Translations under genes and position numbers: made by a program
Shown here: piece after piece, positions 10,864 to 62,187 of the stretch
Numbering within the stretch: the stretch's first letter is position 1
How the letters are laid out: each line of letters opens with the position of its first letter
The notes under the pieces: generated by a model
Told to the model about the DNA's origin: nothing
Database searches by the model: none
What the model saw: the letters and a program-made list of their open reading frames with translations, nothing else
Source of the DNA: a virus
Lineage: Duplodnaviria; Heunggongvirae; Uroviricota; Caudoviricetes
DNA: 64,000 nucleotides
Reading direction: 5' to 3' (one strand)
IMG/VR virus record: IMGVR_UViG_3300013902_000267

Positions 10864-10874
10864 TATGATATAAT

Positions 10875-11828: not shown

Positions 11829-11861
11829 TCAAATAAGTAAAATAAATTAATTAAAATAATA

Positions 11862-12365: not shown

Positions 12366-12398
12366 AATGAAAATTAATTAATGATAGAAATATAAATT

Positions 12399-14389: not shown

Positions 14390-15286
14390 ATGGCAACATG
14401 GAATCAAGCAGTTCAATAGATGGGTAAGTTTTATCAATAGAATATACATACATATCAAGGAGGTAAATCAGGACATGCGACAGGTGCTAGACGTTCTTAT
14501 TCATGTCCTTTAGTTGGACACAGTGTAGGAGATGATTGTTCAGGATTTACTTCTGCGTGTTTATAGTTATTTGGAGCATTTCCAGGCTCATATATTGTTT
14601 CATCTAGTGGTTTTGCATCAACATCTGGTGCAACAGCCGCATATTTAAGAAAAGCTGGATTTTCACCGTTAAGATATATTAGTTACTCATCTTTATAGCC
14701 ATATGATATTGTTGCAAGAAATGGACATGTTGAAGTATTTTGTGGTATGAAGGGAAGTTCACCAATGTCATACGCATGGGGAAATATTCATGATGGCATA
14801 AATGGACATGTTGGTATGCCATGTTGGTTTTCTAAACAGTCTTATTCTATTGTATGGAGAAATTCTGGTGTAAGTATAGATACACCATTAGATTTTTCTT
14901 CAGTGTCTGGCGGTTCATTACAACAATAGATGAATTCTGGATATGGTACAGGTGGAACATTAAATGGGTAGACAGGTTCATAGTTTAATTATACATCAAA
15001 TACATATCCTGTTCATGATGAATATGAAACTATTTCATCTGGTAATGGTTCAAAATCTGTATTTGAAATTGTAGGTGAAAATACATTACGTATGGCATAT
15101 ACAAATTCATCATATATACAACAATTAGATTCATCTAATTATTAGTTAAAAAATACTCGTATATATTCAACTAATGATGCATCTATAATATTAGATGAAT
15201 TATCAATACCATTAGATCCATTTGATACGAGTGTTAATACATTAGATTCAAGTGTTATTGATAATTCAGTTAAAACAAATAATTAA
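14390..15286 (+). CDS. NlpC/P60-type cell-wall peptidase (about 8 in-frame TAG)
   Basis: ATG 14390 is in frame with track ORF 14747-14929. DCSGFTSACL (Cys nucleophile) and NGHVEVF (His); ends TAA 15284-15286. Confidence 0.7.
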
Positions 15287-15292
15287 TAATAT

Positions 15293-16333
15293 ATGGCTGG
15301 CAAGAAATTACTTAATGGTGTTTATATAACAAAGAAAATAATGGAAGCTTTTAATCTTAAAGATTATCAGGCTGCTGGATTTGCTGGTTGTTTTATGGAA
15401 GAATCTGGTTGTGATCCCGGTGCATATAATGCCGCTGAAAAATCTGGAAGATTTAAAGGTTCATCAGCGAACGGTGCAGGTTATGGTGCAGGTCTTGCAT
15501 AGTGGTCTAATGCATGGAAACGGTAGATATAGAGATAGTTTAATAATTCAAGGCCTATAGAAAATTGGACATTAGATTAGCAAATAGCTATTGTTACTAA
15601 AGGCTGTTCATAGTCTTTTGTAAATTTATTAAGAAAATGTACATCAGTAGGTTAGTCTACAGATATTGTTTTAAGAGGATATGAAAATGGTTCTGCAGGT
15701 AAAGGTACTAAATTACGTTCATAGCAATCAATGAAAGCATATACGTGGTGTAAGACATCATATATGGCAGATGGTAGTAGACGTACGTTTAGTGATGGAT
15801 ATATTGGTGCATTAACATGTAGAACATCATGGGCTAATGCAGTTTTAAGTAAAATGGGATCAGTTAATCTTGCAGATTTATCCGGATTAGGAACAGAAGT
15901 AGGTGGAGGATTAGGTGATGATGGCTCTTTTGGTTCTACTGGTGGAGGAGGAACTGGAGATTCAAACGCATATCCTGTTCATGATGAATATGAAACATTT
16001 ACTGGACAAGGTGGAAATATATTTGCAAATGCAAAAGATAATGCATTTCAATTAGCTGCTGATGCATCAAAATCTAAATTTTCATCTAAAGATTCTGAAG
16101 CATCTAAGCATACACGTATATATTCTACAAATGATTCTTGTATTGTTTTAGATGAATTAAGTATACCATATGATCCAAATGATCCAACTATTGAATATGC
16201 AAATCAAAATGTAAAAGCGGAAGATGTTAAGAAAGATACATCTACTAATGCAAAAGATAATACTAAAGACACATCTACAAATAAAAGTACAAATAAATCT
16301 AATACTACAAAAAAGACAACTAAATCTAAATAA
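15293..16333 (+). CDS. lysozyme-like (phage tail lysozyme-type) peptidoglycan hydrolase (about 8 in-frame TAG)
   Basis: Track ORFs 15293-15502 and 15731-16333 are co-framed (438 nt apart) and joined only by TAGs. AAGFAGCFMEESGCDPGAYN ... GYGAGLA-TAG-WS motif. Confidence 0.7.
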
Positions 16334-16335
16334 TT

Positions 16336-19300
16336 ATGATTACAATAAATGGTATTAAATATTTAAAAAAAGGAGAGACATCAAATGATAAAACAATAAC
16401 GCATTATTATTATACAGATTCATTAAAGAAAACTTATAACATAATATATAATGGCAAAAATGCTAAATTATATACAGATACTAAAGTATACAAGGATTCT
16501 GATACAAATTAGATTATAAAGAAAGATTTCTTTAATTATACTATTGATTACGGAACAGGAAAATATGGAGGTGTTTGTTATTCAAAATCAGATGAAGATA
16601 AGATATTAGGTATGGTCGATTCTGATAGTAATATAGATGGAAGTTCTAATGGAGATTCTACAACTGATGGTGATAATAGTTCAAACTCTGGAAATAATTC
16701 TGATGATTCTGATAATAATGACGGTAATAGTTCAAATAATGGTAATGGAACAGGTGATGATACAAATGATTCTGATAGTAATGGATCTGGTAATAAAGAT
16801 ACTAATAATAAAGGTATATTTGAGGATTCAATGGGTAATAAAGATAAAGATAATCCTCGAAGTTCATTACCATTAGGAGCAGATATTAAAGATCCTGATG
16901 TTACAGGTTTTAGCATTGATGAAGTAACAGCGCCACATCCACGAGAAAACAATTGGTATAATAAAGGTTCTGTTTGTCCAATAATACGTATAAATGATCA
17001 TTATTTTTCTGATACTGAAATATAGCATTTTTCTATGGAAACTGGATATTATAAGAATTTTTATGATTATCAAGTATACCAAGCACCGTTAACAGGTGTT
17101 TTACCAACTATGAGGCTTATTGTTACAACAACAGATCCAGGTTTATTAAAGAAAGATTTTATAAAGCAAGGTGATAGATGTAATGTATTTTTCTAGAGTA
17201 ATCATTCTATGATTAAATCTATGAGATGTGATTTCAGAATTACTAATGTTGTAACAGATTAGTTAGATTAGACGTAGTATTAGAAATATCAAACATAGAT
17301 TATAACAGGTGAACTTTATGTCCCGGATTTAAGAAATGAAGAAACTCGTTATAATTTTAATGGTTCATCAAGAGATGCTATGATGGATTTGGCAAAGAGA
17401 TTAAGATTAAGTTTTTTCTTTTGTGATCCTGATGATACTAATGATAAAATGGTTTGGTGTAATTGTAAAACACCTGAAATGTTCATTCATGATTTAACAA
17501 CGCATGCATGGAAAAATTCTATATCATTCTTTGAATCTTGGATTGATCCACGTTATGGATTATCTTTTATGAATATTAATAGATTATTAGGTGAAGATGG
17601 ATTTGATGAATCAATAGATATGACATTCTGGACTAATACATTTATTAATAATAGATCAGTTGATGGAAAATCTGCAAATGAAACAGATACAGAATAGAAA
17701 AATAGTACACATATTCAAACAAAATGTTTTACTAATATTATTAATGATAATGAATCTGCTACAGTATATCATGTTAATAGTTGGAGATTGGTTAATAATG
17801 CATAGGAAATACAAGATTTTGTTGGATTGAATTGTAAAATGCAATATTCATCTGTTAATCCTGGATTATTATCAGATGAGAATAATAATCCAAATTATAG
17901 TGTAGAATTTTCATTATGTTTAAATAGAACTAAATTTGATCCAACTAAAAAGGATAATGATTTTTATGTATTATTAGGACCTGGTAGAAATATGACATAT
18001 GCGAGTGGCGATGCCGCCATGGGAACATCTGAAACACAATCTTCAAATAAAAATGAACCTGAACAAGTTACAAATCAAATGTCTGATGGTGATGCAGATG
18101 CAATGGATAGTACAGGAAATAATATGATGTCTTCTGGTAATACACATCAATTTTATGAAGTTGCTTATGAACATAATATGAGAAATTTACTATAGTTATA
18201 GAAATAGTATTTACTTGTAGAATTAAATGGTGCAAACTTAAGTATTGTTCGCGGTGAAAAAATGCCTATTGTATTAATGGATTTAAATAAAGCAGAACAA
18301 GCTATTAGAACTAGTCAAGCACGTACAAAAATAGAAGAATGTATGTATGAAGCTGAATCCGGTTGGTATATAATTGATGGTATTGAATGGGTTTTTGATC
18401 CTGATAATGATTAGGGACAAGGTACAAACTGGCGAACTAATGTGAAATTAGTTAGAAGAGAATGGCCAATACCATCAAAAATAAAAGATGCAAATGGTAA
18501 TACTGTTTCAAAAAATGTCGCAAATAGTATTGTTTTGGTAGATATTGGAAACGGACAATAGATAAGAATGGCTTATTATGATGCAGTAAAGAAATATAGT
18601 TAGGAAATAAAAAATGGTGATGTCAAAATATTAGGTGGAACAACATCTGAAGACGCAGTTGTAATTGGTCAGAAAAAACAAAACATATCTTCAACTAATG
18701 ATGAATAGAATTCAGATGATCTAGAAGAAAGTGGTAAATTATATACTGCAAATGGTGTAGAGACTGTAAGTGCAGTTAATTTTAATCTTGATTTAATGGA
18801 TCAATATGTAAAAGATTCTGATTATGTTGGTTAGTCTACAATACCTTTAACTGGTTTGAAAGATTTTATGAAAAATATTTATAAAACAATATTATCTGAA
18901 TCCGATAATAAATGTAAATTGGTATCTGGAAGACGGTGGGCAGTAGATGAATATGGTAATAAGGTAAATGGAAATGCGTTTGTAAAGAAATATGATTATT
19001 ATAAATGTATGAATGCTATAGGTGAAGTAATGTATTTTAAAAAAAATAATTCAAGTCATTTATATGGTGAAGCTATTGATATTATTAATAATGGTATAGA
19101 TTTTACTGAACTTATGACTAATGTAATAATGAAATCACCTGCGATATTAAAATTATTTTATGATAATGGTGTTTCTGCTTATATAGAGCAAGCAAAGGAT
19201 GATACAGGCGCAACTACTAAACATTACCATATTGGAACTGATACAATAAAACAACGAGAATTTTGGGAATCTGTTAAAGCTATATTAGGTTCTGATATGA

Positions 19301-19425
19301 TTCCAGGAACTATGATAACATTTATGAACTATATGACAAAAAATACATAGAGAACAACAGAATTCTCTGTAAGTAGTGAAATAGACGAAAACACATTACA
19401 AAAAAATAGTAATAATGATAAATGA
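16336..19425 (+). CDS. large tail/baseplate-associated protein with C-terminal M15-type peptidase (about 19 in-frame TAG)
   Basis: Track ORFs 16612-17025, 17380-17697, 17827-18195 and 18856-19350 all share the frame of ATG 16336. N/D/S/G-rich low-complexity region; SSHLYGEAIDI...HYHIGTD zinc-peptidase motif; ends TGA 19423-19425. Confidence 0.7.
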
Positions 19426-19467: not shown

Positions 19468-20433
19468 TTAAATATGTTTTCTTTTTAATATTTGAATAAA
19501 TTCATCTTCAGTTATTTGAGCACCTGCTGCACCTTCATGTCCTCCACCATGATAATATTCTTGAAGATATTTACCACAATGGAATTCATGTGTATCTGTA
19601 GGATTATACAATGAAATTGCCCACATACCATCAGGTAATCTCTTAAATACAATACCGTTTTTGATTTTATCTTTACATGTTTTAAATATCTGTGAATTTG
19701 TTGGTTTCTGAATAAACAAAGCACATGCAGATCGATTATCAAATCCTACAGTCCATGTAAAATCACCATATGAATTAATGAGGTTCTTATTGTTTCTATC
19801 AATAATCTCTGATTCTAACTTACCTAATTCTTTAAGTTTCCCTAGTTCACATGCTAATTCTTCTGGTTTTGCTTGATATATTATATAATATACATGATTA
19901 ATAATTTCACTTACATTTAAATCATATTTATTATTAACACCAATGTTTACATATCTACAAAAATCAAAATTAATATTCTCCGCATCATAACTCCAGCTAT
20001 CCCATGCAGACAATACTTTAAACAAATCCGGTATTCTTCCAATAAAATTATACAAATAGCTAAAAGCATTATATAATGCAGAATGATCGATTGTCCTTAA
20101 ACCCTGAATATCGTCAAAATGTAATTCTTTTGAACTATTAATCATAGGCGCATGATGGTCAAACCAATATAGTTTATCACCAAAATGTTTTTTCAGTTTA
20201 AGCATTGTTTCTGCTGTATCAAACGAAATATCTGATATATAAACATAATCATATACACCTATAATATCATTTTGAATATTTAAGTTCTCCATCCCATTAT
20301 AATCTTCACCTAATAGTGTGATCATATTTGGATGTATTCCTTTTTCAATTACAAGAAAATTATATATGATAGCCATCGAAAATAAACCATCATTATCTTC
20401 CTTGTGATATATAATTAAATATTTGTCATCCAT
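19468..20433 (-). CDS. DHH/DHHA1 phosphoesterase (NrnA-like)
   Basis: HKEDNDGLFS, DISFD, WFDHHAP and GGGHEGAAG motifs. Confidence 0.75.
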   Translation of the reverse strand: MDDKYLIIYHKEDNDGLFSMAIIYNFLVIEKGIHPNMITLLGEDYNGMENLNIQNDIIGVYDYVYISDISFDTAETMLKLKKHFGDKLYWFDHHAPMINSSKELHFDDIQGLRTIDHSALYNAFSYLYNFIGRIPDLFKVLSAWDSWSYDAENINFDFCRYVNIGVNNKYDLNVSEIINHVYYIIYQAKPEELACELGKLKELGKLESEIIDRNNKNLINSYGDFTWTVGFDNRSACALFIQKPTNSQIFKTCKDKIKNGIVFKRLPDGMWAISLYNPTDTHEFHCGKYLQEYYHGGGHEGAAGAQITEDEFIQILKRKHI

Positions 20434-20445
20434 TATATTATTAAT

Positions 20446-20631
20446 TTAATAATTAGTTTTCTGTTTCTCTAACATTTCTATTGCTTTTGCTTGTCTATCT
20501 ACTGTCTCTTGAAGTTGTTCACACTTATATTTGTAATAATGAGCTTCACCAGCTGCAATCAATATACAAACACATGTAAGTCCCAATATATAAATATCAA
20601 GCTTATTAAAAATCTTTTTTATTGTTTCCAT
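20446..20631 (-). CDS. small membrane protein
   Basis: Track ORF of 61 aa with one hydrophobic helix (IYILGLTCVCILIAAG). Confidence 0.5.
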   Translation of the reverse strand: METIKKIFNKLDIYILGLTCVCILIAAGEAHYYKYKCEQLQETVDRQAKAIEMLEKQKTNY

Positions 20632-20642
20632 TTAATATATAA

Positions 20643-21344
20643 TTATTTTGATAAAGTACAATTATTAAAGAAAGTACAATATGATATATTAACTATATCA
20701 TTATATATAATTGTATCAACAAGTTCATCATATCTCAAAAGAGATGCTATGAAATTTTTATTATTCTGAAATTTAACACCTGGTTGCAATATCTTCGTTT
20801 CATAATGCATCCATATATTAACATTATTAAACTTATTTTTTAATATATCTATATACTTATGATAATCATCAAATGTATTAAATACACCTTTAAATAATGT
20901 ATCTATTATGTTAATATCATTGAAATCAACACTATTTAATAAATTTAATTCATCTGTATTACATGTTTCATATATTACATTATTATCTTTATCATATGAT
21001 TTTGTATTATATAAAATAAGTTGTATATCCTTTTCAGTTGTATTAATTATTTTTATATTTCTAACTATCAACGGACATGATATAATATATGATATAGGAC
21101 ATAGTATGCAGTTCTTTTTAATATTACTATCAAATATTAATGTAACACCACCATCTGAATATTCTATATCATCTATATTATGAACAATATTAATGTTTAT
21201 ATTATAATCATTCTTTTGTTTCTTTAATTTCAGTATATCATCTTTCCATCTTTTGAATTCTAATTCTCTTTGTTCATTTAGAACCTTTGAACCAACAGAT
21301 TCATTATTTACTATGTTATCAAATTCTTCGTCAAATAAATTCAT
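20643..21344 (-). CDS. hypothetical protein
   Basis: Track ORF of 233 aa. Confidence 0.5.
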   Translation of the reverse strand: MNLFDEEFDNIVNNESVGSKVLNEQRELEFKRWKDDILKLKKQKNDYNININIVHNIDDIEYSDGGVTLIFDSNIKKNCILCPISYIISCPLIVRNIKIINTTEKDIQLILYNTKSYDKDNNVIYETCNTDELNLLNSVDFNDINIIDTLFKGVFNTFDDYHKYIDILKNKFNNVNIWMHYETKILQPGVKFQNNKNFIASLLRYDELVDTIIYNDIVNISYCTFFNNCTLSK

Positions 21345-21433
21345 ACCTTTTTAAAATTAATCAATAATTATATAGAAAAATGATGAAAAAGTTATATATT
21401 TTCTTAAAAATATTGATATTTTAACAATAAAAA

Positions 21434-21463
21434 ATGATTCCAGTAGAAGTATACTGGAATCAT
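21434..21463 (-). terminator. rho-independent terminator downstream of nrdD
   Basis: ATGATTCCAGTA / TACTGGAATCAT perfect 12-bp hairpin, followed by a T run on the minus strand. Confidence 0.6.
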
Positions 21464-21489
21464 TAAAATATTAAAATAAAATAGTTAAA

Positions 21490-21579
21490 TTAAATATTTT
21501 CTTTTGGTAAATAAACACGTGTCTTTTGTTCTTTCTGACGTCCATCAGACCAATTCGAAATTTTAGTTAAATCACAATA
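21490..21579 (-). CDS. nrdD: anaerobic ribonucleotide reductase NrdD, exon 6 (C-terminus after the glycyl-radical Gly)
   Basis: Minus-strand frame reads (Y)CDLTKISNWSDGRQKEQKTRVYLPKENI-TAA, completing RIIG|Y from exon 5. The 5' boundary is approximate. Confidence 0.6.
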   Translation of the reverse strand, partial: YCDLTKISNWSDGRQKEQKTRVYLPKENI

Positions 21580-21817
21580 TACCCGAACTTTCATTCTATT
21601 TTAAAGGGGTTAGACTATACCACTAACTTCTTGAGTTACATCTTGGTAGTCGTTGAGGGCTTTTATTTGTTTCGTATCAAATAACTATCCCTGCTGATTA
21701 TCCATTGTTATATCATTAGAATTTTTACACTTTGGTATCTAATGCTTTAGGAACTTCCAGCATATTCGATGTTTGCTATATATGTCACCATATATAGGGG
21801 CATTTAATTAAAAATTT
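21580..21817 (-). ncRNA. group-I-like intron 5 (ORF-less)
   Basis: About 238 nt interrupt the RIIG/Y glycyl-radical motif. Contains ACTACCAAG ... GGTATAGTCTAA, like the P7 region of T4-type group I introns. The exact splice sites are ambiguous. Confidence 0.5.
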
Positions 21818-22156
21818 ACCCGATTATTCTGTCATATAAACTTACATGAACTGATCCACACTTTGGACATACACTAAATGGTGTCTTTGAAATATATCCA
21901 CAATCTTCACATTTACAATTAGGAACATTAAATGTCCAATATTGACAACCATTCTCTGCCGCAAATTTCATAATGTGAACAATCTGTTTCTTAGACAAGT
22001 GCTCTGACAAATTGAGATGCGCTGCTGAACCACCATCCAAAAAATCTCCAATATAGTTCTTACCATGTAAGGTAATCTTATCAAAGATTGACAATGTTTT
22101 ATCATTTGGTTTGAATATGTAAGACGCATACAGGTTAGTGTCTGTTGGTACCCAAT
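21818..22156 (-). CDS. nrdD: NrdD exon 5
   Basis: (Y)WVPTDTNLYASYIFKPNDKTLSIFDKITLHG...LDGGSAAHLNL...CEDCGY...CPKCGS...YDRIIG; track ORF 21816-22094 extended upstream. Confidence 0.75.
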
Positions 22157-22191
22157 CAACTCTGTTACATGATTACATAATAATTTTAATA

Positions 22192-22479
22192 TTATTGTTG
22201 AATGTAATCTGATTTATTAATATATTCATTTAGATTTATTAAACCTGCATGAATTTTCCTATGACAATTTGAACATACACATACACATTTTTTTATTTCT
22301 TCATATAGTTTTTCTTTACCTCTCCCTCGATGTTTACCTATTGTAAAATCTTTTTCATTTGGATCTATATGATGAAAATCTATACAACATGGTTCATATT
22401 CACTACATATTATACATGGATTCTTTAATGAATATAACCATTCTGTTTTTCTTTTTTGTGAACGCTTATTTTTGTTCAT
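22192..22479 (-). CDS. HNH homing endonuclease (intron 4)
   Basis: CIICSEYEPCCIDFHHIDP...CSNCHRKIH HNH/zinc motif; track ORF of 95 aa. Confidence 0.7.
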   Translation of the reverse strand: MNKNKRSQKRKTEWLYSLKNPCIICSEYEPCCIDFHHIDPNEKDFTIGKHRGRGKEKLYEEIKKCVCVCSNCHRKIHAGLINLNEYINKSDYIQQ

Positions 22480-22612
22480 TATGTATTTCAGGATGTGCTT
22501 TTCTCATCTATTTCCTATATAATTTTCTACATTCTTTACATACTGCACGTCCTTTTTCAAACATTTCTATAGACAATTCTTTACCACATTTATTACATAT
22601 TTTTGTTGTCAT
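22466..22612 (-). CDS. Cys4 zinc-ribbon ORF, probable detached N-terminus of the intron-4 HNH endonuclease
   Basis: MTTKICNKCGKELSIEMFEKGRAVCKECRKLYRK-TAG-MRKAHPEIHNEQK. Overlaps the HNH ORF start in another frame at an A-run. Confidence 0.4.
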
Positions 22613-22911
22613 ATATATTAAATTATGTTTTATTATTTATCACCGGAACATGACAAAAATAACATAACCCAATTATATTAATAAACGCTTAATTATTTCT
22701 AATCAAGTCTCTATGTTACCATAGAGTTCGGACTATTGCATAGTTTTGTTTCACAACAAAACTCCTTTTTATTTAGTCTCTCAGGCTGCCCATAACATTG
22801 TTGTTATTGCTTGCCCCTCGTTATCCTTACTACCGGTACCTAAGGTAATAAAATGTAAGGAACTTCGAGTCAATTAAAAAAGGTTTTACATGGACATTGT
22901 TATTGTTGTCT

Positions 22912-23395
22912 ATCCATCTTCAGAATCCCAATTATAATTCTTTATTGCCAAACTTTCAGCTGGTATACATTCAGTATTGAACGTTAACTTATGACCGTTA
23001 AATGTACCTGCAGCTTCTTGATTCTTTTGCTTTATATATCCAAATATTGTTTGACAAAGTTTTTCATAATGAGGATTTACATTACAAGTAATTCCTAAGA
23101 ATTCTGCCATTTGATTAAGACCATTCAAACCAATTGTTAAATATTGCTTATTCAAATTAATAAACCCTGCTTTATATACAGGTAATAATCCTGCGTCATA
23201 CATATCCCAAAGAAGTTCATTATATGCTGTATGATATTTATATACTCTATCAAGAATATTACCAAAATATTCGCACATATCATCATAATGCTCTTCTACA
23301 TTTTCTTTTGTTACTCCAGATTTCTTAACACTGTTAAACCAGTCTTGAGTTATGCGACTAAGATTCAGGGTTATCACACTTTTACTTCCTGTTTG
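22912..23395 (-). CDS. nrdD: NrdD exon 4
   Basis: QTGSKSVITLNLSRI ... AESLAIKNYNWDSEDG; track ORF 22910-23377 extended upstream. The 5' boundary is approximate. Confidence 0.75.
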
Positions 23396-24623
23396 ACGTT
23401 TTCTCCATATATTTCTATATGGTCCGGGTCATATCTTATGTTTATTTAAATAATAAACATTGCACTATTTCGGCATTTAAAACGATTCGTTTCCTAAAAC
23501 GTTACTACGTATCAATAGTAGTCCTACTCCACCTGCTCATCACTTAGGGGATGACCTCCACACACATTAATAATTTTTATATGTTCTACCTATTAACATA
23601 TTCCTAAAATTATTCATTAAATAATTTTTATATTTACCGATTTTTAATTCTTCAATAGATTTGCCATTATTATATTGTTCTCTTAAATAAACAACTTCAT
23701 CTTTAGATAACAATGGTAACTTCTATTTACATTTATCAGTTCTAATAGGCATTTTTACATGCATATATGATTTTCCAAATAATATTTTATTAAATCCACT
23801 CCATGAATATAAATTACTATATTCTTTAAAAATATCATCTTCTTTTTCACCATTTACAAAATATCTTATTCTTATGTTTAATACTTCTTCATCAGATAAA
23901 TTCTTAGAATTTGCATGCATATTTCCTCTACGTGTTCTTCGATCTGATTTATAAAAATCATTTACTTTATCTGTATTATATTCTATACCAATTTCAGGTC
24001 TTGTATAATAATGCCAATATTTTGAAAATCCACTTTTTGACATTCTATCTTTATACATTTCATATACTTCTCCAAAAGTATATTTCATAGAATAACGTAT
24101 TTTTCTTAATTCTAATAATTCATTATCATTTAATATTGCTTTGGGATGCTCCTCCCCAACTTTTATTATAGTTGCAGAATGTCCACCCAATGTAGAATTA
24201 TATCCATTATTATAACTATCATATAATTTAATGTAATATATTTCTTTATTATCAGCTTCATCCTAATTAGGAACATTATCTTCTAATATTGAAAAATTTG
24301 ATTCATTAATATTATATTTTCTCATTGCTCTATATAATTTATAATCACTATGTTTCATATCATTTAAATGTTCTCTTACTCTTATATGATAATGATGTGT
24401 CTACCCAATATATACTTTTCCATTAGGAAATGATATTTTATAAATTGTAAATATTTTATTCATATATTATAAATGTAAAATTATAACATATTTATATTAA
24501 CTTGGCTCGGTATTACCATGCATATAGTTTCACAACTTATGTTTAGGCTTCACCGATGCATTAATATCGCTATATTAATACATTGCTTGATTAGCAATTA
24601 AGCACATAAAGGACCCAAGTTGA
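23396..24623 (-). mobile_element. group-I-like intron 3 with GIY-YIG endonuclease ORF
   Basis: Separates GNLG(I) from QTGSKSV. Structured flanks include GCCGAAATAGTGCAATG. Boundaries are good to about 10 nt. Confidence 0.6.
23567..24463 (-). CDS. GIY-YIG homing endonuclease (3 in-frame TAG)
   Basis: IYKISFPNGKVYIG-TAG-THHYHIRVREH...YNNGYNST; in frame with track ORF 23723-24190; ends TAA. Confidence 0.75.
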
Positions 24624-25408
24624 TCCCTAAATTTCCATTTGTGAAGTTGAATTCCTTTGTTTGTATCTTATTCTTAAGTCTGCAGTTATGTGTTATATTT
24701 CCATTAGGCATTAAGAAATATGGTTCAAGATTCTTATCGCAGAGTTCTACACAATAATAATCTTTTGGTTCATCAAGATTTACAACTTCAACCTTTGTAA
24801 TTTTTCTTATAACAATGTCTTGATCTACATCTTTAAAATCATTTCTAAACATACCCATATATTGTCCATACTCAAAGATAAGTTGATCTCCTGTTTGAAG
24901 CAAATATGCTTGCTTATCTTTAATCATCTTATCATCATCAATAATAGGGAATATATGATCCGGTGTAACTCTCATTACATTTCGTGATTCATCCGGATTA
25001 AAATCGTCTGGAGCGAAATAAATTCTTACTTCTTGAACTGCTTCTGCTTTTACAAACTTAGCATTTACCCATTCACCTGTACATTTACCTGTTGTACCAT
25101 TAAAATTCATATGATATACATTAATAATTTCATCCTTATGCTTTTCATATGCATTTTTAAATGACTCAACCATATATGCGTTTGAACCTGCGTTTTCTTC
25201 CATATTACAAGGTTCTACATACATGAATGGAGTATCACCATCGAAACAACAACTTGATAATGAATCAACTGTATCTGACATATATGTAAAGAATGAATGA
25301 CCTCTTGCATATTCATCCGCCACAAAATCTGCAGATTCCTTATCAAGGAATTCTCCATCCTTATATACTAATGCGAAACTTTCCCATTTATATTCTATAT
25401 AGTTCGTT
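24624..25408 (-). CDS. nrdD: NrdD exon 3 (includes the intein)
   Basis: ...FALVYKDGEFLDKESADFVADEYARGHSFFTYMSDTVDSLSSC [intein] CRLKNKIQTKEFNFTNGNLG; track ORF 24598-25425. Confidence 0.75.
24685..25248 (-). mobile_element. mini-intein (188 aa Hint domain, no endonuclease domain)
   Basis: Starts CFDGDTPFMYV, has block B VTPDH, and ends YYCVEL..PYFLMPNGNITHN followed by +1 Cys. Excision restores SLSSC-CRLKN. Confidence 0.75.
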
Positions 25409-26203
25409 ACACTATATACGTTCATAATAATGAACTGCTTTATGTTACCATAAAGATTAGACTATATCACAATCCTATAAATATAGGATTCTCCCCATTT
25501 CCACTCACTTGAGTGTACTTCCTTTCGGAATAGTCGTTGAACCTTATTATATAAATGAATATTTATGACCATAATATAATCTATTTGCATTTATCGATTT
25601 TACTAATCCTGATATACATGCAGTTCCTCCAATATTTTTAATAACTTCGGACATTGATGAATATATTATATTATTATCTAAACATTTTATTTTCTTTGGA
25701 AACGTTTTTCCCTTCATCGTATTACCAAATGTTTTAATAGAATATAATTCATTCTCTGATTGTGTGCACCATTCTAAATTATCTACTCTATTATCTGATC
25801 TATTACCATTTAAATGATTTACAAATGGTTTATTTTCAGGATTTGGTATAAATTCTTGAGCAACAAGTCTATGACATAAATATCTAGTTTTAATAGAATT
25901 TTGCATTAATGATATTCTTAAATAACCATCTAATGTATATTCTACTTTTAATGGTTTACCTTTATACGGACGTAATCCACCCCATCTACAAGGCACCATT
26001 CTATCTTTACTTCTGAAATTACCTAAATTACTAACTTCAAATGCGCCATCATATCCTGTTATACTTTTCCAAATTTCTTCCATAATATTCTCTTATATAA
26101 TCTTGGTTGCTGATTATCTAATAACTTCGCATATTTATTAGAGTTCCCAGCAGTTAAAGGAGTTTTTCAATAATAAATTACTTTATTATGCCGCAGATTG
26201 ATT
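25409..26203 (-). mobile_element. group-I-like intron 2 with HNH endonuclease ORF
   Basis: Interrupts TFPV / TNYIEY. Core GTGATATAGTCTAA and CGACTATTCCGAAAGGAAGT elements. Boundaries are approximate. Confidence 0.6.
25547..26083 (-). CDS. HNH homing endonuclease (I-HmuI-like, NUMOD4 + HNH)
   Basis: YDGAFEVSNLGNFRS and VNHLNGNRSDNRVDNLEWCT motifs; track ORF of 178 aa. Confidence 0.8.
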   Translation of the reverse strand: MEEIWKSITGYDGAFEVSNLGNFRSKDRMVPCRWGGLRPYKGKPLKVEYTLDGYLRISLMQNSIKTRYLCHRLVAQEFIPNPENKPFVNHLNGNRSDNRVDNLEWCTQSENELYSIKTFGNTMKGKTFPKKIKCLDNNIIYSSMSEVIKNIGGTACISGLVKSINANRLYYGHKYSFI

Positions 26204-26442
26204 TACGGGGAAGGTGATTATCGTACGAAGACGTTCCTTATTAAACCATATCATGAAGTCTTTCTGTAACCATGAAACACTTTCCCAACATGGTCTTGTT
26301 CCTTCTTCATCAGGAAATACAAATTCACCAAACATACCTTCAAAGAACGGTTTATCAAAATAAGAGAAATTTACAACATTTTTTCTTCTACATAAATCGT
26401 TACTTTATGTACGTTACTATTTGTAACTGCTCTATGATTTCC
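26204..26442 (-). CDS. nrdD: NrdD exon 2
   Basis: Minus frame reads NHRAVTNSNVHKVTIYVEEKNVVNFSYFDKPFFEGMFGEFVFPDEEGTRPCWESVSWLQKDFMIWFNKERLRTIITFPV. Antisense to track ORF 26272-26454. Confidence 0.6.
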
Positions 26443-27797
26443 ATAGACGATTAACGAATTTCACGTTAAAAGGGTTTGTTTAAACCGTTTAGACTATATC
26501 ACCAAATTTAATTTTCTTAAATTTGCACCTACACTTCCATAACACTTGTTATGTACTCTACTAACTCATTTAAAGTTTTCGATAGTCGTTGAACTTTTAT
26601 CCTTGTAGGATAATTAGCTGCGTATGATTACCCAATCTTTATCGTTTTTACAATCTGATAGCCGTTATACTATCTGCTACTATCTATGTTACCATGATAT
26701 GCTGTAGATAAAGCTCTAAGGGACTTCCCGCAATTCAAGGTGTTTATTAACGTCAGCACATGTAATTTCTCTTATAATTTAATTATTACCAAAATTATGT
26801 ATTTTATACATGTGACAATTTTTACAATATGTTATAAGATTATCTATGTTATTAAGTTCTTTATTTTTTATCGCTAAATTAAATAATTCATCAAAATTAT
26901 CAGTAGGATTTAATTCTGGATGTTCTGATAATAAATTATGAAATAATATTTTAAATGGAACTATATGATGAACTTGAAGATTTTCATGACAACCGCATAG
27001 CTAACAAGTATTATGATCTCTCTCTATAACTTCTGGAACTAATCGATTAAAATATGTTCTTATTTTATTACCTAATCTTGTAGTATCTGTTGTATATGGA
27101 ATATTAGTAATATTTAAACTATTTAATACTCTATTAATTACAGCTATTGTACAATTATATCTCCGTGCCAATTCTGTTTTTGATATTGACTATTCAATAT
27201 ATAAATTATATAATTTTTTATAATCATTAAAATCTTCTGGTATTTCTTTTTTATGATAATTCCACATAGATTCTGCAAAAGTACGTCTTTTAATCCCATT
27301 ATGTTTTAAATGACTTCTTATAGTAGTTGCTGAACAGTTAAATATTTTACCTATTTCTACTGTAGATTTACCATCATTATATAATTTTATTATTTCCTAA
27401 TCATTTGTATCATCATATTGTTCATAAACTTCATAATTAGTATTTTTTATATTATATTTTTTAAAATATCTATTAATAGTACCTTTATGACATTTATATA
27501 TTTCTGAAATTTCTTTCATTGTTAAACCATTATTAACATAATTTATTAAATCTTCTTTTTTAATTATTAATTTAGATTTTTCAATATTCCATTTTCTTAA
27601 ATATTCTTTAATATTTGCTAATGTTGTATTTCCTTCTTTAGCACACTATTTTCGTGTTAAACCTTTAATAACATAATTTTCATATAACCAATCTCTATCT
27701 TTTGTAAAATATCTATAATTAGACATAATTTCAGATATGTAAAATTACATACAGGATTATGTAATTTTTAATTTATTTTAGTTTATGCTGACTATAA
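26443..27797 (-). mobile_element. group-I-like intron 1 with HNH endonuclease ORF
   Basis: Separates INQPAASRG from NHRAVTN. Core GGTGATATAGTCTAAACGG and CAACGACTATCGAAAAC elements. Boundaries are approximate. Confidence 0.6.
26779..27726 (-). CDS. HNH homing endonuclease with repeated HTH modules (4 in-frame TAG)
   Basis: 948 nt from ATG to TAA when TAG is read through. RDHNTC-TAG-LCGCHENLQVHHIVPF ... YCKNCHMYKIH, plus three NUMOD-like HTH repeats. Confidence 0.75.
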
Positions 27798-28901
27798 TCC
27801 TCTGGAGGCCGCAGGTTGGTTAATTGAATACACGACCTATTGAAAGAATTGTTGAATACATGAACCAATAGTTCTTGTACCATCACCTATCTTAATAGGA
27901 TTCGTAAAATCTTTTATTGAACCTTCAACATCATATTGTGATAATTCTTTCTCATATGCTTCAAGTTCTTCATCTGTTAACTCTCTTTCTGAATTATAAA
28001 CAAGTTCATCACGAAGTTTGTTTAATTCGTCTGAACCAAAATCATGTTTTCTCAATGTATCTACATCTTTACACCAATAATTAGATTCATTAAGAAGTTT
28101 CCTATATTTAGGCCCAATCTTATAAAATTCTTTACTATGCAAATGATAATCTTCACCAAACTCTTTTCTTGCAAAATAATCAAAATAAACAAGAAATTCC
28201 GATGTTGCAACTGCACCTGCAAATTGAGCAGCAACTGCAAATACAAGATTTACATACATACCACAATAAGAATCAAGATTTTGTGGATGACATGAAAGAC
28301 CTCCTATTTTTTCTAAACCATTATGAAGGAATGGATACATAGTTATACTTGTGCAATACGGACTTATGGCACCAGCGAAGCTAGACTCATCGTTCTTATA
28401 TATAATATGGTTTTTTAAATCTTTTTGATATTGTTTTGCTTTAAAATTTGGATATAGTTCTTTAAGTTTCCTTGTAATCATACCTCTGCTTACAAGAATA
28501 TTATCAGCTTTATGAATTTCAGCATTTAATACACCGATATTCTTAGAAGAAACATTAGAATTATCATCTACAGTACTATTTGCAGTATTAGATGCATTCT
28601 TATATCTTTCAATAAATGCTTCCTTATTAGCAACCCATTCTCTAATTTCCTTTTTCTTGTTACGATAAAGAATAAATTCTTTCGCAACTTTAGGATAATC
28701 ATGAGAATACAAACTTGTTTCAATTTGATCCTGTATTTCCTCTACAGGAATACCATCATATGGTGTTATTGAGTTTGCAATATTAGCTATAGTATCTTTA
28801 GTATACTTAGTTTTCGTAGACTTAAACGCCTCACGAATCGCTCGTTTAACTGTCTAAACACTATAGTTCTCAAAACTACCATCACGTTTCGTTACCTTCA
28901 T
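27798..28901 (-). CDS. nrdD: NrdD exon 1 (ATP-cone plus N-terminal core; in-frame TAGs at 28854-28856 and 27837-27839)
   Basis: MKVTKRDGSFENYSV-TAG-TVKRAIREAF (ATP-cone) is in frame with track ORF 27837-28712. Continues through TAG 27837 to VVYSINQPAASRG. Confidence 0.8.
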
Positions 28902-28992
28902 ACTTAGTTTTCTTTCTATTTTATTTTTGGTAAAATATTTATTCTCGACTATGAGAATTTTTCAAAATATTATTTTATATATTATATAAAAA

Positions 28993-29030
28993 AATGCAAA
29001 TGAAGTCTTATAACAAACATCATTTGCATT
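28993..29030 (-). terminator. rho-independent terminator
   Basis: AATGCAAATGA / TCATTTGCATT perfect 11-bp hairpin, followed by a T run on the minus strand. Confidence 0.5.
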
Positions 29031-29038
29031 AAAATATT

Positions 29039-29758
29039 TTAATTATTTTTAAAAATTTTTTCTTTCCAATAATTAAAGTCAATATCTTTGATTTGATATT
29101 GAATTAAATTTCCAGTTAATACATCAGAAAGTTTTACAGGTTTATAATCATTTCCATCAACACCAACATCATATGTCATTGCTTTTTCTTTTAATTTCTT
29201 AGCAATATTTGCATCTGTACCTGTATATGTTTCAACATTCTTTGGTGTATGCAGATGTCCATGTATATTGAACTTTCCTAAAAATTGACCATCACAATGT
29301 GGATAATGTGAAACTGTAAATTGAAGAATTATTTTATCTTTATAATCGTCATATATTTGTACAATAAGTTCTGTACTCCAATATACTTTACTATTCTCAT
29401 TATATGGCATCATATTCCTTCTTTGCAATACATTCTTTACATCATGATTTCCAATAATATTATAAATCTTTTCAGCATTAATATTATTAACCATTTCATC
29501 ATATGTACTTACATTACTAAATATAAAATCACCACAATTTATAAGTATTGGATTAACGCATTCAGATAAAGTTTCATTAAGATTATCAAATAAAACTTTA
29601 TTCATTTCTTGTACATCTTTAAATGGTCGATTACAATATTTTATTATATTTGCATGATTTGCATGTATATCACTAGTAAAAAATATTCTATTTATATCAG
29701 ATACTTTAAACTTTAATATATGCGGCCCCATTACTACTGTTTTCTTTTCTTGCTTCAT
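29039..29758 (-). CDS. calcineurin-like metallophosphoesterase
   Basis: FFTSDIHANH, CGDFIF, IIGNHD and IHGHLH motifs. Confidence 0.7.
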   Translation of the reverse strand: MKQEKKTVVMGPHILKFKVSDINRIFFTSDIHANHANIIKYCNRPFKDVQEMNKVLFDNLNETLSECVNPILINCGDFIFSNVSTYDEMVNNINAEKIYNIIGNHDVKNVLQRRNMMPYNENSKVYWSTELIVQIYDDYKDKIILQFTVSHYPHCDGQFLGKFNIHGHLHTPKNVETYTGTDANIAKKLKEKAMTYDVGVDGNDYKPVKLSDVLTGNLIQYQIKDIDFNYWKEKIFKNN

Positions 29759-29761
29759 TAT

Positions 29762-30016
29762 TTACCAAAATCCCCTTTTATAATCTTCATATTCTACATA
29801 ACATCTTTCTACATTCCTAAATAGAATTTTAAAATAACGTGGAAGTTCATCATACATTAATGCTAAACATTGATCTACACTTAATGGATCAACTATATAT
29901 TCATGTCCAGATAATTCCCAACATTTAGTTATAAGTTTTGCTTCACTTTCAACATAATCACACATAAATGGAGCAATCCATATATTACCAGAGTTCTTAA
30001 TTGTTACAATTCTCAT
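29762..30016 (-). CDS. hypothetical protein
   Basis: Track ORF of 84 aa. Confidence 0.5.
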   Translation of the reverse strand: MRIVTIKNSGNIWIAPFMCDYVESEAKLITKCWELSGHEYIVDPLSVDQCLALMYDELPRYFKILFRNVERCYVEYEDYKRGFW

Positions 30017-30018
30017 TA

Positions 30019-30822
30019 TTACATATTTCTAAATGAAGTTTTTGGATCAAAACCTGCATTTATAATTTTTGTTTTATTATCAGGTAAGCATTCAGGTTCT
30101 TTCTTTGTTTCCCAAAGAAAATTCTCTATATCTATATAAACATTCTGTTCATTCGTTATTCTACTTCTATTTGAACCTAATACATCAAACTTTTGTTTTA
30201 CAAATATAGGATTAATTGTTAATCCTGCATTACCATCAAGATAGTGAGAAATATCATCTGATTCATTAGCATACATAAAAGTAGGTGATTCAAGCTTTCT
30301 GAATATATCTGGATTCTCTATTTTCCAACTTTGTTTTTCAAATTCAAATTTAGGAATATACCACCTACTATTTCTATCATACAATTTATCAATATGAAGC
30401 TTTTCTCTTAATCCATTTTTCTTACAATATTCATCAAATTTACATTGGACCTTATTATAAATTTTATCCCACAAATTCTTATCATGTACATATTCTTCAG
30501 CAACTGGTATAGGATTTAATTCAATAGGGACATATGTATTTCTTGTAATTTTATGCATAATTACATAAAATGGACATATATAGATATAAGGATAAAATCC
30601 ACATACAATAGATTCCATCCATGCTACATAATCTTCTTTAAATCCATATGTATGAAAATAAAGATGTCCATAATCATGAATTTCCTTTATAATAGATTTA
30701 TATTTTTTATCATCTTTATCTATTTGTATAGGATTACGTACATAGGTAATACTTTCATCTGGTTTACCAAGAATAAATCCAAATGAATCATAAAAATCCT
30801 TATATTTTGATACTATTTTCAT
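30019..30822 (-). CDS. hypothetical protein
   Basis: Track ORF of 267 aa. Confidence 0.55.
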   Translation of the reverse strand: MKIVSKYKDFYDSFGFILGKPDESITYVRNPIQIDKDDKKYKSIIKEIHDYGHLYFHTYGFKEDYVAWMESIVCGFYPYIYICPFYVIMHKITRNTYVPIELNPIPVAEEYVHDKNLWDKIYNKVQCKFDEYCKKNGLREKLHIDKLYDRNSRWYIPKFEFEKQSWKIENPDIFRKLESPTFMYANESDDISHYLDGNAGLTINPIFVKQKFDVLGSNRSRITNEQNVYIDIENFLWETKKEPECLPDNKTKIINAGFDPKTSFRNM

Positions 30823-30827
30823 AATGA

Positions 30828-31280
30828 TTAAACTTTCATTTCTTTGTTAGATTCTGCAATATAAAGTTTCATATGTGTAAATATCATATATCCCCTATAT
30901 ACAGTATCTAAATTTTCATTTTCGTAAAAATGCTTTACTGCATTCTTCCTTTGTTCTTCACGTATTTCATCTATTCCTCTCCATTGAGATTCAGACCTAT
31001 ATGTATATTCATTAAATTTAAATCCATATGAATATTGTTCATATAAATCATTATTTAGTTTTCGAACGTGATTATATATATTTTCCCAAAGTTTCTTATC
31101 TATCCGTTTATTTGCATTCATAAAAAGATAAATCATGTCATAATTATCTTCTATATATGTAGCAAATGTTTCTTTAATATATGGCTGAAATTCTTCATAT
31201 GGATGATGTTTCTTTGGACGACCTCGTTTTCTTTTAACCGGTTGTTCAATAATTTCTTCAGTATCTTTAATTTCTTCCAT
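30828..31280 (-). CDS. hypothetical protein
   Basis: Track ORF of 150 aa. Confidence 0.5.
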   Translation of the reverse strand: MEEIKDTEEIIEQPVKRKRGRPKKHHPYEEFQPYIKETFATYIEDNYDMIYLFMNANKRIDKKLWENIYNHVRKLNNDLYEQYSYGFKFNEYTYRSESQWRGIDEIREEQRKNAVKHFYENENLDTVYRGYMIFTHMKLYIAESNKEMKV

Positions 31281-31282
31281 TT

Positions 31283-31477
31283 TTACTTTGCAAACTTTAA
31301 TTTCATAATAAGTTCATCCACTAATTCACCTGGAACATCATTCACTTTAATATATTGATTATCAAACTCAGACCATACACATGTGCATTCAGTCCACTTC
31401 AATACATCAATTAACTTTTGAACCATATCCTTTGAAAGTGATACTTGATTATTATTTCCTTTAAGTGTAAAATCCAT
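31283..31477 (-). CDS. hypothetical protein
   Basis: Track ORF of 64 aa. Confidence 0.45.
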   Translation of the reverse strand: MDFTLKGNNNQVSLSKDMVQKLIDVLKWTECTCVWSEFDNQYIKVNDVPGELVDELIMKLKFAK

Positions 31478-31598
31478 TATCGTTTTAATTTAAGTTATTA
31501 ATATACATATATTACTTTAAAAATATTGATTTGTTTACTCATATAAAATAAAAAATCTCTAATAATCTTTCAAAATTATTAGAGATAAAAATATAAAA

Positions 31599-32393
31599 TT
31601 ACTTTCCAAGAATTAAATTAGGAATTCCGTGACTACCAACATATGTTTTTGGTAGTTCTCCTGTCCATTTTTCAATTGCCATTTTTTGAATAAGCAAAGG
31701 TGTAAGAGACTGTTCTTTCAACTTATTTGCTTTAGCTTCTGCTTCTGCAAGAACAATCTTTTTCTTTGCTTCTGCTTCTGCCACGCGTATCTCATTGCTG
31801 ACTCGCATTTCATCTTGTATAGCTTTGTTTTTAGCATTAATAGCTTCTTCATAAGATTTCGGATAACCAATACCTGGTGTTAGTTGCTGAAGAATAAAAT
31901 GTTCTTTTGCAAATGATTTTCTAACTCTATCCTCAAATGATTTATCAACTGATTCTCGATTTGATACAATCTGATCTGCTGTATACTTGTTGAATTCAAT
32001 ACGAGCAGCGTCTCTAATATATACATATAATGTATTCTTTACAATATCATCAAGTTGCTTACGATATTTCTTAAATATAATAGGCGATTTCCCATCTTCT
32101 ATTTTTACAAGAACTGCTGGATCAACTGTAAATTTTGTTCCATCTTTACTGTTTACTTCAAATGATGGATAATCTACTGTCTGAATATATGTAGGATATT
32201 CAAATACGTCATTCGTAAATGGACAATACCATTTAACGCCTGTACATAGACTTACTTCACCCACACCCTTATCATCACCATAAAGATTTACATAAATACC
32301 TTCACACCCTGCGTCTATCCTCTCATACCAGCAAGATGTCAAACTCATACATGCTATAATAGCAACAATAAAATTCAATAGAATTTTCTTCAT
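31599..32393 (-). CDS. SPFH/band-7 family lipoprotein
   Basis: Signal peptide with lipobox (ACMSLTSC), an SPFH-like core, and the Ala/Glu coiled coil RVAEAEAKKKIVLAEAEAKANKLKEQ typical of HflK/C and prohibitin proteins. Confidence 0.65.
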   Translation of the reverse strand: MKKILLNFIVAIIACMSLTSCWYERIDAGCEGIYVNLYGDDKGVGEVSLCTGVKWYCPFTNDVFEYPTYIQTVDYPSFEVNSKDGTKFTVDPAVLVKIEDGKSPIIFKKYRKQLDDIVKNTLYVYIRDAARIEFNKYTADQIVSNRESVDKSFEDRVRKSFAKEHFILQQLTPGIGYPKSYEEAINAKNKAIQDEMRVSNEIRVAEAEAKKKIVLAEAEAKANKLKEQSLTPLLIQKMAIEKWTGELPKTYVGSHGIPNLILGK

Positions 32394-62091: not shown

Positions 62092-62187
62092 TGGATATAG
62101 ATGGACTCGAACCACCATGTATCTGCCCTAGAATTATGATACAAACTAACATCATATTAGTCGCGTTTACCATTTCGCCATATATCC
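62092..62187 (-). tRNA. type-II (long variable arm) tRNA, Ser(UGA)-like, with a non-canonical anticodon loop
   Basis: Acceptor GGATATA/TATATCC, Ser-like D arm TGGCGAAATGGTAAACGC, anticodon stem ACTAA/TTAGT with loop TATGATG (A33, U37), a 26-nt variable hairpin TGTATC..GATACA, and T arm GGTGG-TTCGAGT-CCATC. Confidence 0.55.

Follow-up and report, generated by a model that had tools for sequence, protein, structure and literature searches.

Two classical cases of phage genes with several splicing elements are bnrdE/bnrdF of the Bacillus prophage SPbeta, where an intron and an intein occur in one ribonucleotide reductase (RNR) gene, and orf142 of Staphylococcus phage Twort, where three group I introns interrupt one open reading frame (ORF). 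In phage T4, nrdD (sunY, with I-TevII), nrdB (with I-TevIII) and td contain self-splicing introns of the IA type that carry GIY-YIG or HNH-type endonucleases, but each gene has one intron, none has an intein and the standard genetic code is used. Here we describe an nrdD gene in a 64,000-nt stretch of Caudoviricetes DNA (IMG/VR record IMGVR_UViG_3300013902_000267; hereafter the window), which resembles the T4 genes in the kind of intron and endonuclease it carries and differs from them in number: a single gene on the minus strand, from 28901 to 21490, reads as six exons, five introns (I1 to I5, from 5′ to 3′) and one mini-intein of 188 amino acids (aa), with TAG as a glutamine codon. SPbeta and Twort, with Firmicutes hosts and the standard code, also have fewer elements per gene. 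The window comes from a Lak megaphage, a group of gut Prevotella phages with genomes of roughly 550 kb; its positions 20000-32000 matched Prevotella phage Lak-B7 (MK250026.1) over 12 kb in one piece at 100.0% identity and the other baboon Lak-B genomes at 99.3-99.9%. An earlier reading made from the letters of the window only (the sequence-only reading) had proposed one nrdD gene with about five group I introns, four of them with homing-endonuclease ORFs, and an intein, and had set this against the single intron of T4 nrdD; our analysis supports this core interpretation and the T4 comparison.

Published parallels come from two other phage groups. In the Jug jumbo gut phages (Sci Adv 2026), nrdD is fragmented by group I introns in 95 of 104 genomes, the inserts in nrdD and terL contain endonuclease or intein-domain ORFs, and for one nrdD in four fragments RNA-seq reads support splicing at some junctions (PMC12880540). 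Like Lak, these are huge gut phages of Bacteroidota with a fragmented nrdD. They differ in using the standard code, in having four fragments rather than the six exons and intein of Lak-B, and in introns that are short on average (~206 nt), whereas four of the five Lak-B introns span 755-1408 nt and carry ORFs. The evidence for the junctions is also of another kind, being partly RNA-seq in the Jug phages and, for every site in Lak-B, an intron-less sister allele. Group I introns and inteins are also densely packed in Zeta and Delta crAss-like phages (Yutin et al. 2021; PMC7886860), which resemble Lak-B in combining TAG recoding and an intein in one gene, TerL. However, they belong to another lineage with 100-190 kb genomes, and their published intron-rich examples are MCP, PolB and TerL, not nrdD. 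With five introns and one intein, the load of Lak-B nrdD lies slightly above these crAss-like examples. Multi-intron, intein-bearing genes, nrdD among them, are thus already known from the crAss-like and Jug phages, and the elements described here are ordinary group I introns and an ordinary intein, with no new kind of element. The main texts of the Lak phage papers are silent on inteins, on ribonucleotide reductase and on group I introns within protein genes.

The GenBank entries for Lak phages in the phage collection are unannotated, and the minus strand of 21490-28901, when read with the standard code, gave a string of short ORFs containing NrdD-like, HNH-like and GIY-YIG-like pieces and in-frame TAG stops. 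TAG codons were found at conserved Gln positions in NrdD (RGL-TAG-SAF), in an HNH ORF (C-TAG-LCG, corresponding to CQLCG) and in the GIY-YIG ORF (YIG-TAG-T, corresponding to YIGQT). All three in-frame TAG codons of nrdD are located in exon 1, at codons 16 (28856-28854), 355 (27839-27837) and 370 (27794-27792), and one more is present in the I4 ORF, besides those of the I1 and I3 ORFs given in Table 1. When four Lak alleles were compared, codons 355 and 370 were TAG in the window and CAA in sister alleles, Lak-A1 having CAA at both. Because TAG aligned with CAA in sister alleles and with conserved Gln positions, these alignments indicate that TAG is a sense codon for Gln in this phage. Genetic code 15 (TAG=Gln) has been published for Lak phages (PMC6784885).

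Joined, the exons gave an in-frame sequence of 2958 nt whose only stop is at its end, and the predicted product was a 985-aa precursor, or 797 aa without the intein. In the alignment to NrdD profiles that the sequence-only reading had suggested for the conceptually spliced protein, the match was full-length: the product scored 667.5 bits against the NCBIfam equivalog TIGR02827 (anaerobic RNR; cut-off 568.3) and 272.5 bits against Pfam NRDD, covering model positions 16-560 of 562, and its ATP-cone scored 64.9 bits. It was colinear with Thermotoga maritima NrdD (4coi) across J1, J2 and J5, the spliced junctions of I1, I2 and I5, and across the intein site, with RIVGYLVPVS of the T. maritima enzyme aligned to RIIGYLTKIS over J5. 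Eight metagenomic homologues (58-71% identity) were colinear with it across every junction; in their alignment SAFVNFSYFD, TFPVE, QTGSKSV, YWVP and GYLTK were invariant or nearly so, and RIIGYLTKI was invariant. Conceptual splicing left the Cys-Cys motif SSCCRL, the zinc ribbon CKCEDCG...CPKCG and the glycyl-radical motif RIIGY intact. These results indicate that the conceptually spliced gene encodes a full-length, in-frame class III anaerobic ribonucleoside-triphosphate reductase (NrdD), and they bear out the proposal of one minus-strand gene in which five intervening sequences separate six coding segments and an intein interrupts SSC|CRL in frame. Outside Lak, the nearest NrdD in the phage collection was that of the crAss-like phage cr116_1, at 62% identity.

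All five spliced junctions occur as uninterrupted genomic DNA, base for base, in Lak-A1, Lak-A2 or Lak-C1, and the boundaries of I1-I3 are fixed by these intron-less alleles without sliding ambiguity. Each of the four Lak alleles (B7, A1, A2 and C1) gave a 2958-nt ORF with one terminal stop, from different sets of insertions: Lak-B7, the allele of the window, has I1, I2, the intein, I3, I4 and I5; Lak-A1 has only the intein and I3; Lak-A2 has the intein, I3 and an additional intron, I0, which the other three lack; and Lak-C1 has only I1 and the intein. Between Lak-B and Lak-A or Lak-C, exon nucleotide identity was ~80-91% and NrdD protein identity 92-93%. The protein is therefore more conserved than the DNA among Lak alleles, which points to purifying selection and effectively rules out pseudogene fragments.

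The boundaries of intron 4 were those of the sequence-only reading, with splicing restoring DGYWVP, and the last intron indeed lies in the Tyr codon directly after the glycyl-radical Gly (RIIG|Y). Several other boundaries had to be moved. Because TAG=Gln had gone unrecognised, exon 1 had been ended at SRG, but it continues with L-Q(TAG)-S-A and the first base of a Phe codon to 27785; NHRAVTN... had been taken as exon 2, but belongs to the 3′ part of I1, exon 2 starting with (F)VNFSYFDKPFF at 26376; and exon 6 had been started at YCDL, but its true start, (Y)LTKISNW..., lies 10 nt downstream at 21572 (RIIGY|LTK). The start of exon 3 was corrected to ESFALVYKDGEF at 25384. The join RIIG|YCDL was rejected because it would require an intron ending in U or A. 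A direct-repeat join at exon 6 (RIIGYIVI-stop) was likewise rejected in favour of ...UUGUG|AUUUAA, which allows a 6-bp P10, matches the homologues and is identical to Lak-A1 DNA. An alternative 3′ splice site for I2 (FPVV|TNYIEYKWESF) was rejected, as it disagrees with the intron-less alleles and with the alignments to T. maritima NrdD and the homologues.

Table 1. Features of the nrdD locus in the window (HTH, helix-turn-helix)
Feature	Coordinates	Strand	Description
nrdD exon 1	27785..28901	-	1117 nt; ATP-cone and N-terminal half; ends after base 1 of the Phe373 codon
I1	26377..27784	-	1408 nt; group I; absent from Lak-A1 with exact junction
I1 endonuclease ORF	27726-26779	-	315 aa; HTH repeats and HNH; four TAG; phrog_8446; HNH_2 26.9 bits (cut-off 21)
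nrdD exon 2	26205..26376	-	172 nt; (F)VNFSYFDKPFF...RTIITFP(V)
I2	25385..26204	-	820 nt; group I, IA type; absent from Lak-A1, A2 and C1 with exact junction
I2 endonuclease ORF	26083-25547	-	178 aa; no TAG; NUMOD4 53.3 bits, HNH_3 44.8 bits; between P4-P6 elements and P7
nrdD exon 3	24623..25384	-	762 nt; ESFALVYKDGEF...SLSSC, intein, CRLKNKIQTKEFNFTNGNLG(I)
Mini-intein	24685..25248	-	188 aa; in-frame insertion that separates the Cys pair of SSC|CRL in exon 3
I3	23397..24622	-	1226 nt; group I, divergent P7; absent from Lak-C1 with exact junction
I3 endonuclease ORF	24463-23567	-	298 aa; three TAG; GIY-YIG 22.2 bits, just under the 22.6 cut-off
nrdD exon 4	22912..23396	-	485 nt; (I)QTGSKSVITLNLSRI...NYNWDSEDG(Y)
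I4	22157..22911	-	755 nt; group I; absent from Lak-A and Lak-C
I4 endonuclease region	22612-22466 (Zn-ribbon ORF) and 22479-22192 (95-aa HNH ORF)	-	3′ of the core
nrdD exon 5	21818..22156	-	339 nt; (Y)WVPTDTNLY...zinc ribbon CKCEDCG...CPKCG...LYDRIIG(Y)
I5	21573..21817	-	245 nt; group I, no ORF; absent from Lak-A1, A2 and C1 with exact junction
nrdD exon 6	21490..21572	-	83 nt including TAA stop; (Y)LTKISNWSDGRQKEQKTRVYLPKENI*

At every insertion the 5′ exon ends in U, which pairs as U·G with an internal guide sequence in a P1 of 4-7 bp, and the 3′-terminal nucleotide of all five introns is G. A contiguous P10 of 3-6 bp is present in I2-I5. In I1 the guide GUGCUGA (26759-26753) pairs with the exon sequence UCAGCAU at 7/7 positions, and the ribozyme core covers ~26790-26377; because the endonuclease ORF occupies the P1 loop, the guide is 1025 nt from the 5′ splice site. 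P1 of I2 is CCGU/GCGG (guide at 26194-26191), and helices P7.1 and P7.2 are present. In I3, P1 is AGGGAU/GUCCUU (guide at 24614-24609) and P7 is GGUCA/UGACC. I4 has P1 AUGGAU/GUCCAU (guide at 22895-22890), P10 AUUG/CAAU and a core from 22911 to ~22709. I5, which splits the Tyr codon next to the glycyl-radical Gly between its first and second bases, has P1 GGGU/GCCC (guide at 21801-21798) and a 6-bp P10, AUUUAA/UUAAAU. The T4-intron-like element (G/A)TATAGTC(T/C)(A/G)A, which had been ascribed to every intron, was exact in I1, I2 and I5 only; I4 has CAATAGTCCGA and I3 has GATATGACC. From these features and from the core comparisons below, we conclude that all five insertions are group I introns, that I1 and I2, with extra helices between P7 and P3′, are of the IA type and that I3 is a divergent member.

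Two further features of these introns were observed. Within the first 40 nt of I1, ATAATCC (~27752-27746) is perfectly complementary over 7 nt to GGATTAT of exon 1 (27801-27795), in the co-converted tract described below; one may speculate that this complementarity helps to hold the 5′ exon, the I1 guide being 1 kb distant. The first 10 nt of I4 (22911-22902), an ACAACA-type repeat in the P1 loop, differ in length by 6 nt between Lak-B7 and Lak-B1, B2, B4, B8 and B9.

In searches restricted to ranges of 286-836 nt, the Rfam group I model RF00028 matched four introns on the sense strand below its curated cut-off of 50 bits. The best of these was I4 (286-nt search), at 42.6 bits over the full-length model (E = 7e-10), followed by I1 (431-nt search; 33 bits, full-length model, E = 8e-7), I2 (short-range search; 29.3 bits, model 1-253, mostly the 3′ half, E = 2e-5) and I5 (311-nt search; 24 bits, model 60-148, E = 3e-4). 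The low scores are probably due to ORF insertions and AT-rich peripheral elements. The core of I2 was compared with homologues from three IMG/VR viral contigs, in which they interrupt nrdD at the I2 site. RNAalifold, applied to the 3′ half of the four sequences, recovered P7, P7.1, P7.2, P8, P9, P9.1 and P9.2, and 15 of 46 pairs were compensatory, across P7.1, P7.2, P8, P9 and P9.2. P1 of I2 covaries with the exon as well (CCGU/GCGG versus CUGU/GCAG). By blastn, the I2 core was ~75% identical over ~115 nt to the T4 nrdB/I-TevIII intron region, and it also matched Staphylococcus, Listeria and Brochothrix phage sequences, several of them under RNR genes.

The non-coding parts of I3 were 98% (5′) and 92% (3′) identical between Lak-B and Lak-A1, compared with 87.5% for its ORF, and one hairpin contained a compensatory block (AACG/CGTT versus AGTA/TACT). 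The 3′ core of I3 was also 85% identical over 88 nt to an insert at ~1675-2655 in Enterococcus phage EF1 (MF001358.1). This insert, like I3, has a GIY-YIG ORF; it adjoins a DNA polymerase III alpha coding sequence (CDS). P7 and two hairpins covary between the two, with 10 of 41 pairs compensatory in the RNAalifold comparison, three of them in P7. They differ in that the EF1 insert lies in an unrelated host gene of a Firmicutes phage and has the canonical P7 GACUA/UAGUC rather than GGUCA/UGACC. An earlier candidate for P7 of I3, GGACUA/UAGUG, was rejected because the EF1 comparison places P7 at GGUCA/UGACC. Judging from the translation, the EF1 polymerase seems to extend into the CDS annotated next; in the record these pieces are separate 'hypothetical proteins', and an intron is not annotated.

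Endonuclease ORFs are present in I1-I4, as the sequence-only reading had proposed, and matched phrog_8446, phrog_59, phrog_7168 and phrog_2255 at 74-135 bits. The profiles identify HTH and HNH domains in I1, NUMOD4 and HNH_3 in I2, GIY-YIG in I3 and a small HNH domain in I4.

The insertion at SSC|CRL starts with CFDGDT, contains a TPDH block and ends with THN followed by Cys, and has no endonuclease domain. It therefore shows the N-terminal Cys, TxxH block, C-terminal His-Asn and +1 Cys of an intein, at a conserved host site. Intein-less homologues are colinear across SSCCRL, and two homologues (P0046 and P0014) carry inteins at that site. The window intein aligned end to end with that of P0046 (29% identity, E = 2e-12), and the same-site insertion of P0014 scored 38.6 bits against Pfam Intein_splicing, above the cut-off of 35.8. 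A PDB sequence search with the window intein gave no match. The intein at SSC|CRL was present in every Lak-type locus examined.

Comparison of the alleles at the I1 site revealed a co-conversion tract. I1 is 97% identical between Lak-B and Lak-C1, whereas the flanking exons are ~87% identical, and around the site Lak-C1 agrees with Lak-A1 at nearly every position where both differ from the window. The exception is a tract of ~20 nt directly upstream of I1 (window 27806-27785), where Lak-C1 has ten Lak-B-type substitutions, including TAG codon 370. By this comparison the tract is the co-conversion signature expected from endonuclease-driven homing. Codon 370 was TAG in exactly those examined alleles that have I1 (Lak-B, Lak-C1 and the IMG/VR contigs L023 and L007) and CAA in those examined without I1 (Lak-A1 and Lak-A2).

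The other introns are polymorphic too, and every intron of the window has an intron-less allele. I4 was found in six of nine B-Lak genomes. The remaining three (B3, B5 and B6) covered only 94% of the 12-kb query, with a gap of ~750 nt; because this is about the size of I4, the intron appears to be polymorphic within B-Lak and absent from these three. The Lak-type contigs L007 and L024 also lack I4. I1, I3, I4 and I5 recur in other Lak-type genomes, whereas I2 recurs only outside Lak-type loci: its homologues, with homologous NUMOD4-HNH endonucleases, occupy the exact same nrdD site in three contigs of 99-188 kb (L039, L040 and L044) where NrdD shares only 43-51% identity with its Lak counterpart, which implies intron exchange between distant gut phage lineages. 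Among 50 related loci, nrdD had no insertion in 29, one in 7, two in 6, three in 3 and four in 3, and six insertions (five introns and the intein) were found in Lak-B only.

Lak nrdD has at least six intron sites. The sixth is that of I0, a 1372-nt group I intron of Lak-A2 (MK250019.1, 8073-9444), which interrupts QQVV-Y-SINQP in its Tyr codon and lies 45 nt upstream of the position used by I1; the possibility that this 1.4-kb insert is a variant of I1 was rejected, as it is a different intron. The 345-aa HTH and HNH ORF of I0 contains many TAG codons, and the 3′ core of I0 shares ~73% identity with the core of I1; ORF-less forms of ~365 nt were seen at the I0 site in the contigs L011 and L028. 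The intron site of T4 nrdD, which we infer to be the Tyr codon of E-Y|E-V-N, coincides with none of the five sites of the window. It lies 15 codons upstream of I1 and, by our alignment, has the same codon and phase as I0 (V-Y|S-I-N). Other insertion sites in relatives were codon 357, 429|430, 641/642 and 699/700, along with an intein-like insert near residue 183. One insert type, ending ...GGCGTAACAGAAKG and starting ...CTAATTGACT, was observed at the nrdD sites 429|430 (phase 0) and 641|642 in L030, L036, L037, L043 and L044, and another type, characterised by a canonical AAGATATAGTC element, at 699|700, among others in the Lak-type contigs L023 and L028.

With a probability of about 0.9, we regard Lak-B nrdD as a class III RNR gene with TAG=Gln whose six exons, five group I introns and mini-intein are resolved by splicing to a 797-aa enzyme. 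The nrdD gene of this baboon-gut Prevotella megaphage would be transcribed as one precursor of ~7.4 kb, from which the ribozymes I1-I5 would excise themselves by two transesterifications, the guide holding the 5′ exon via U·G and a G forming the 3′ end. The six exons would then be joined into the 2958-nt mRNA, translation with TAG-to-Gln decoding at three codons would give the 985-aa precursor, and the intein would splice itself out from between the cysteines of SSCCRL. During co-infection the homing endonucleases (two HNH, one GIY-YIG and one frameshifted HNH) may move the introns into intron-less nrdD alleles. We propose that such endonuclease-driven homing is the reason why intron content varies among Lak genomes and related introns occur in other phages.

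Several results weigh against this interpretation. At its curated cut-off RF00028 matched none of the introns, and no match appeared when the whole window was searched or, at E ≤ 10, a range of 8.5 kb. The absence of covariance-model hits, which the sequence-only reading would have taken as a refutation, thus holds at the curated threshold but not in the targeted searches, where four introns gave sub-threshold hits; even in a short-range search I3 scored a non-significant 8.7 bits. The window intein scored 26.7 bits against Pfam Intein_splicing, under the cut-off, and its single-sequence AlphaFold2 model had a mean pLDDT of 39.4, too poor for a fold test or search. No gene for the radical-SAM activase NrdG was found among the five flanking ORFs, to which the scan was limited; these five encode only DHH-like, metallophosphatase and SPFH proteins. 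Of the 76 introns predicted in the Jug phages, only 37 had read support (PMC12880540). The claim of an unusual density of elements, which held within the 50 related loci sampled, is weakened by the crAss-like (PMC7886860) and Jug (PMC12880540) cases. Finally, the two I4 pieces together resemble a single HNH endonuclease whose frame shifts by +1 at an A5 run: fused (139 aa), they matched phrog_2255 at 98 bits (profile 52-175), compared with 81.6 for the HNH part alone. Because this frameshift splits it, the I4 homing-endonuclease gene may be decaying, the alternative being that it is shift-dependent. The frameshifted sequence was identical in the other B-Lak genomes that hold I4.

Some of these results would be explained if the gene is functional but at least one insertion, most plausibly I3 or else I1, no longer self-splices efficiently and would then need a protein cofactor or act as a slow regulatory step, so that part of the transcripts yield no NrdD. 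I3 went unrecognised by RF00028, P1 of I1 must form over ~1025 nt with the endonuclease ORF in its loop, every Rfam score is under the curated cut-off, and read support in the Jug phages extends to only about half of the predicted introns. However, in every allele the exons keep their frame and show purifying selection (~86-87% identity in nucleotides against 92-93% in amino acids), conservation of the I3 core exceeds that of the I3 ORF and of the exons, with helices kept by compensatory changes, and exons 2 and 6 are short, begin inside codons and look usable only once spliced. We consider inefficient splicing improbable on this evidence. Still less probable is a decayed nrdD overrun by selfish elements, present as pseudogene fragments or separate genes: the many short ORFs with in-frame TAG stops under the standard code and the frameshift in the I4 endonuclease would fit such decay, but the complete 2958-nt ORF has no other stop in four divergent alleles, the catalytic motifs SSCCRL, the zinc ribbon and RIIGY are all intact, the equivalog cut-off is passed and the protein has changed less than the DNA. 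The source genomes were assembled from metagenomes, and chimeric joins or collapsed repeats could have created a mosaic. Such an artefact is the least credible explanation, as the same arrangement occurs in nine Lak-B genomes, manually curated according to their authors (PMC6784885), and in three independent IMG/VR contigs (L007, L008 and L024), with exact, biologically sensible boundaries at each insertion.

No TAG-decoding (suppressor) tRNA was found in the 64-kb window; a tRNA-Gln(CTG) is present at 33-104. In-frame TAG use is patchy across the window, with zero in most ORFs. The regions noted in this respect are 14390-19425 (+), 10270-13166 (+), 40811-41974 (-) and 62683-63897 (+), and the ORFs of the block at 14390-19425 (+) contain 8, 8 and 19 in-frame TAG codons. 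This patchiness agrees with a published proposal in which particular (late) genes are the main sites of recoding. A 96-nt tRNA-like gene at 62092-62187 (-), adjoining tRNA-Lys, scored 45.3 bits as tRNA in Rfam and was missed by ARAGORN with default settings; the intron mode of ARAGORN read it, unconvincingly, as a tRNA-Asn(GTT) that has a long extra arm and is interrupted by 4 nt of intron. The Lak paper describes one intron-containing tRNA (Tyr-GTA) in baboon Lak genomes, and the 96-nt gene may be that tRNA.

A bolder reading of the co-conversion tract with TAG codon 370 is that intron homing spreads recoded TAG codons and that recoding in turn gates the selfish elements. This is a tentative idea that we think rather unlikely to hold. 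If it did, essential early genes of recipient phages would acquire TAG codons through mobile introns, translation of NrdD and of the endonucleases of I1 and I3 (3-4 TAG each) would have to await expression of the phage's TAG-decoding tRNA, and dNTP supply and intron homing would both be tied to the code switch. On a more modest reading, Lak-B nrdD would have the highest documented intron-plus-intein load of a single phage or bacterial protein-coding gene; five introns and one intein is the highest load among the loci and papers examined. Recognising nrdD as one gene, which a standard-code reading hides, gives Lak phages a complete anaerobic RNR. Lak nrdD is also a natural allelic series with a visible co-conversion tract, and thus well suited to studies of how introns home from one co-infecting megaphage to another and of the interplay of homing with stop-codon recoding.

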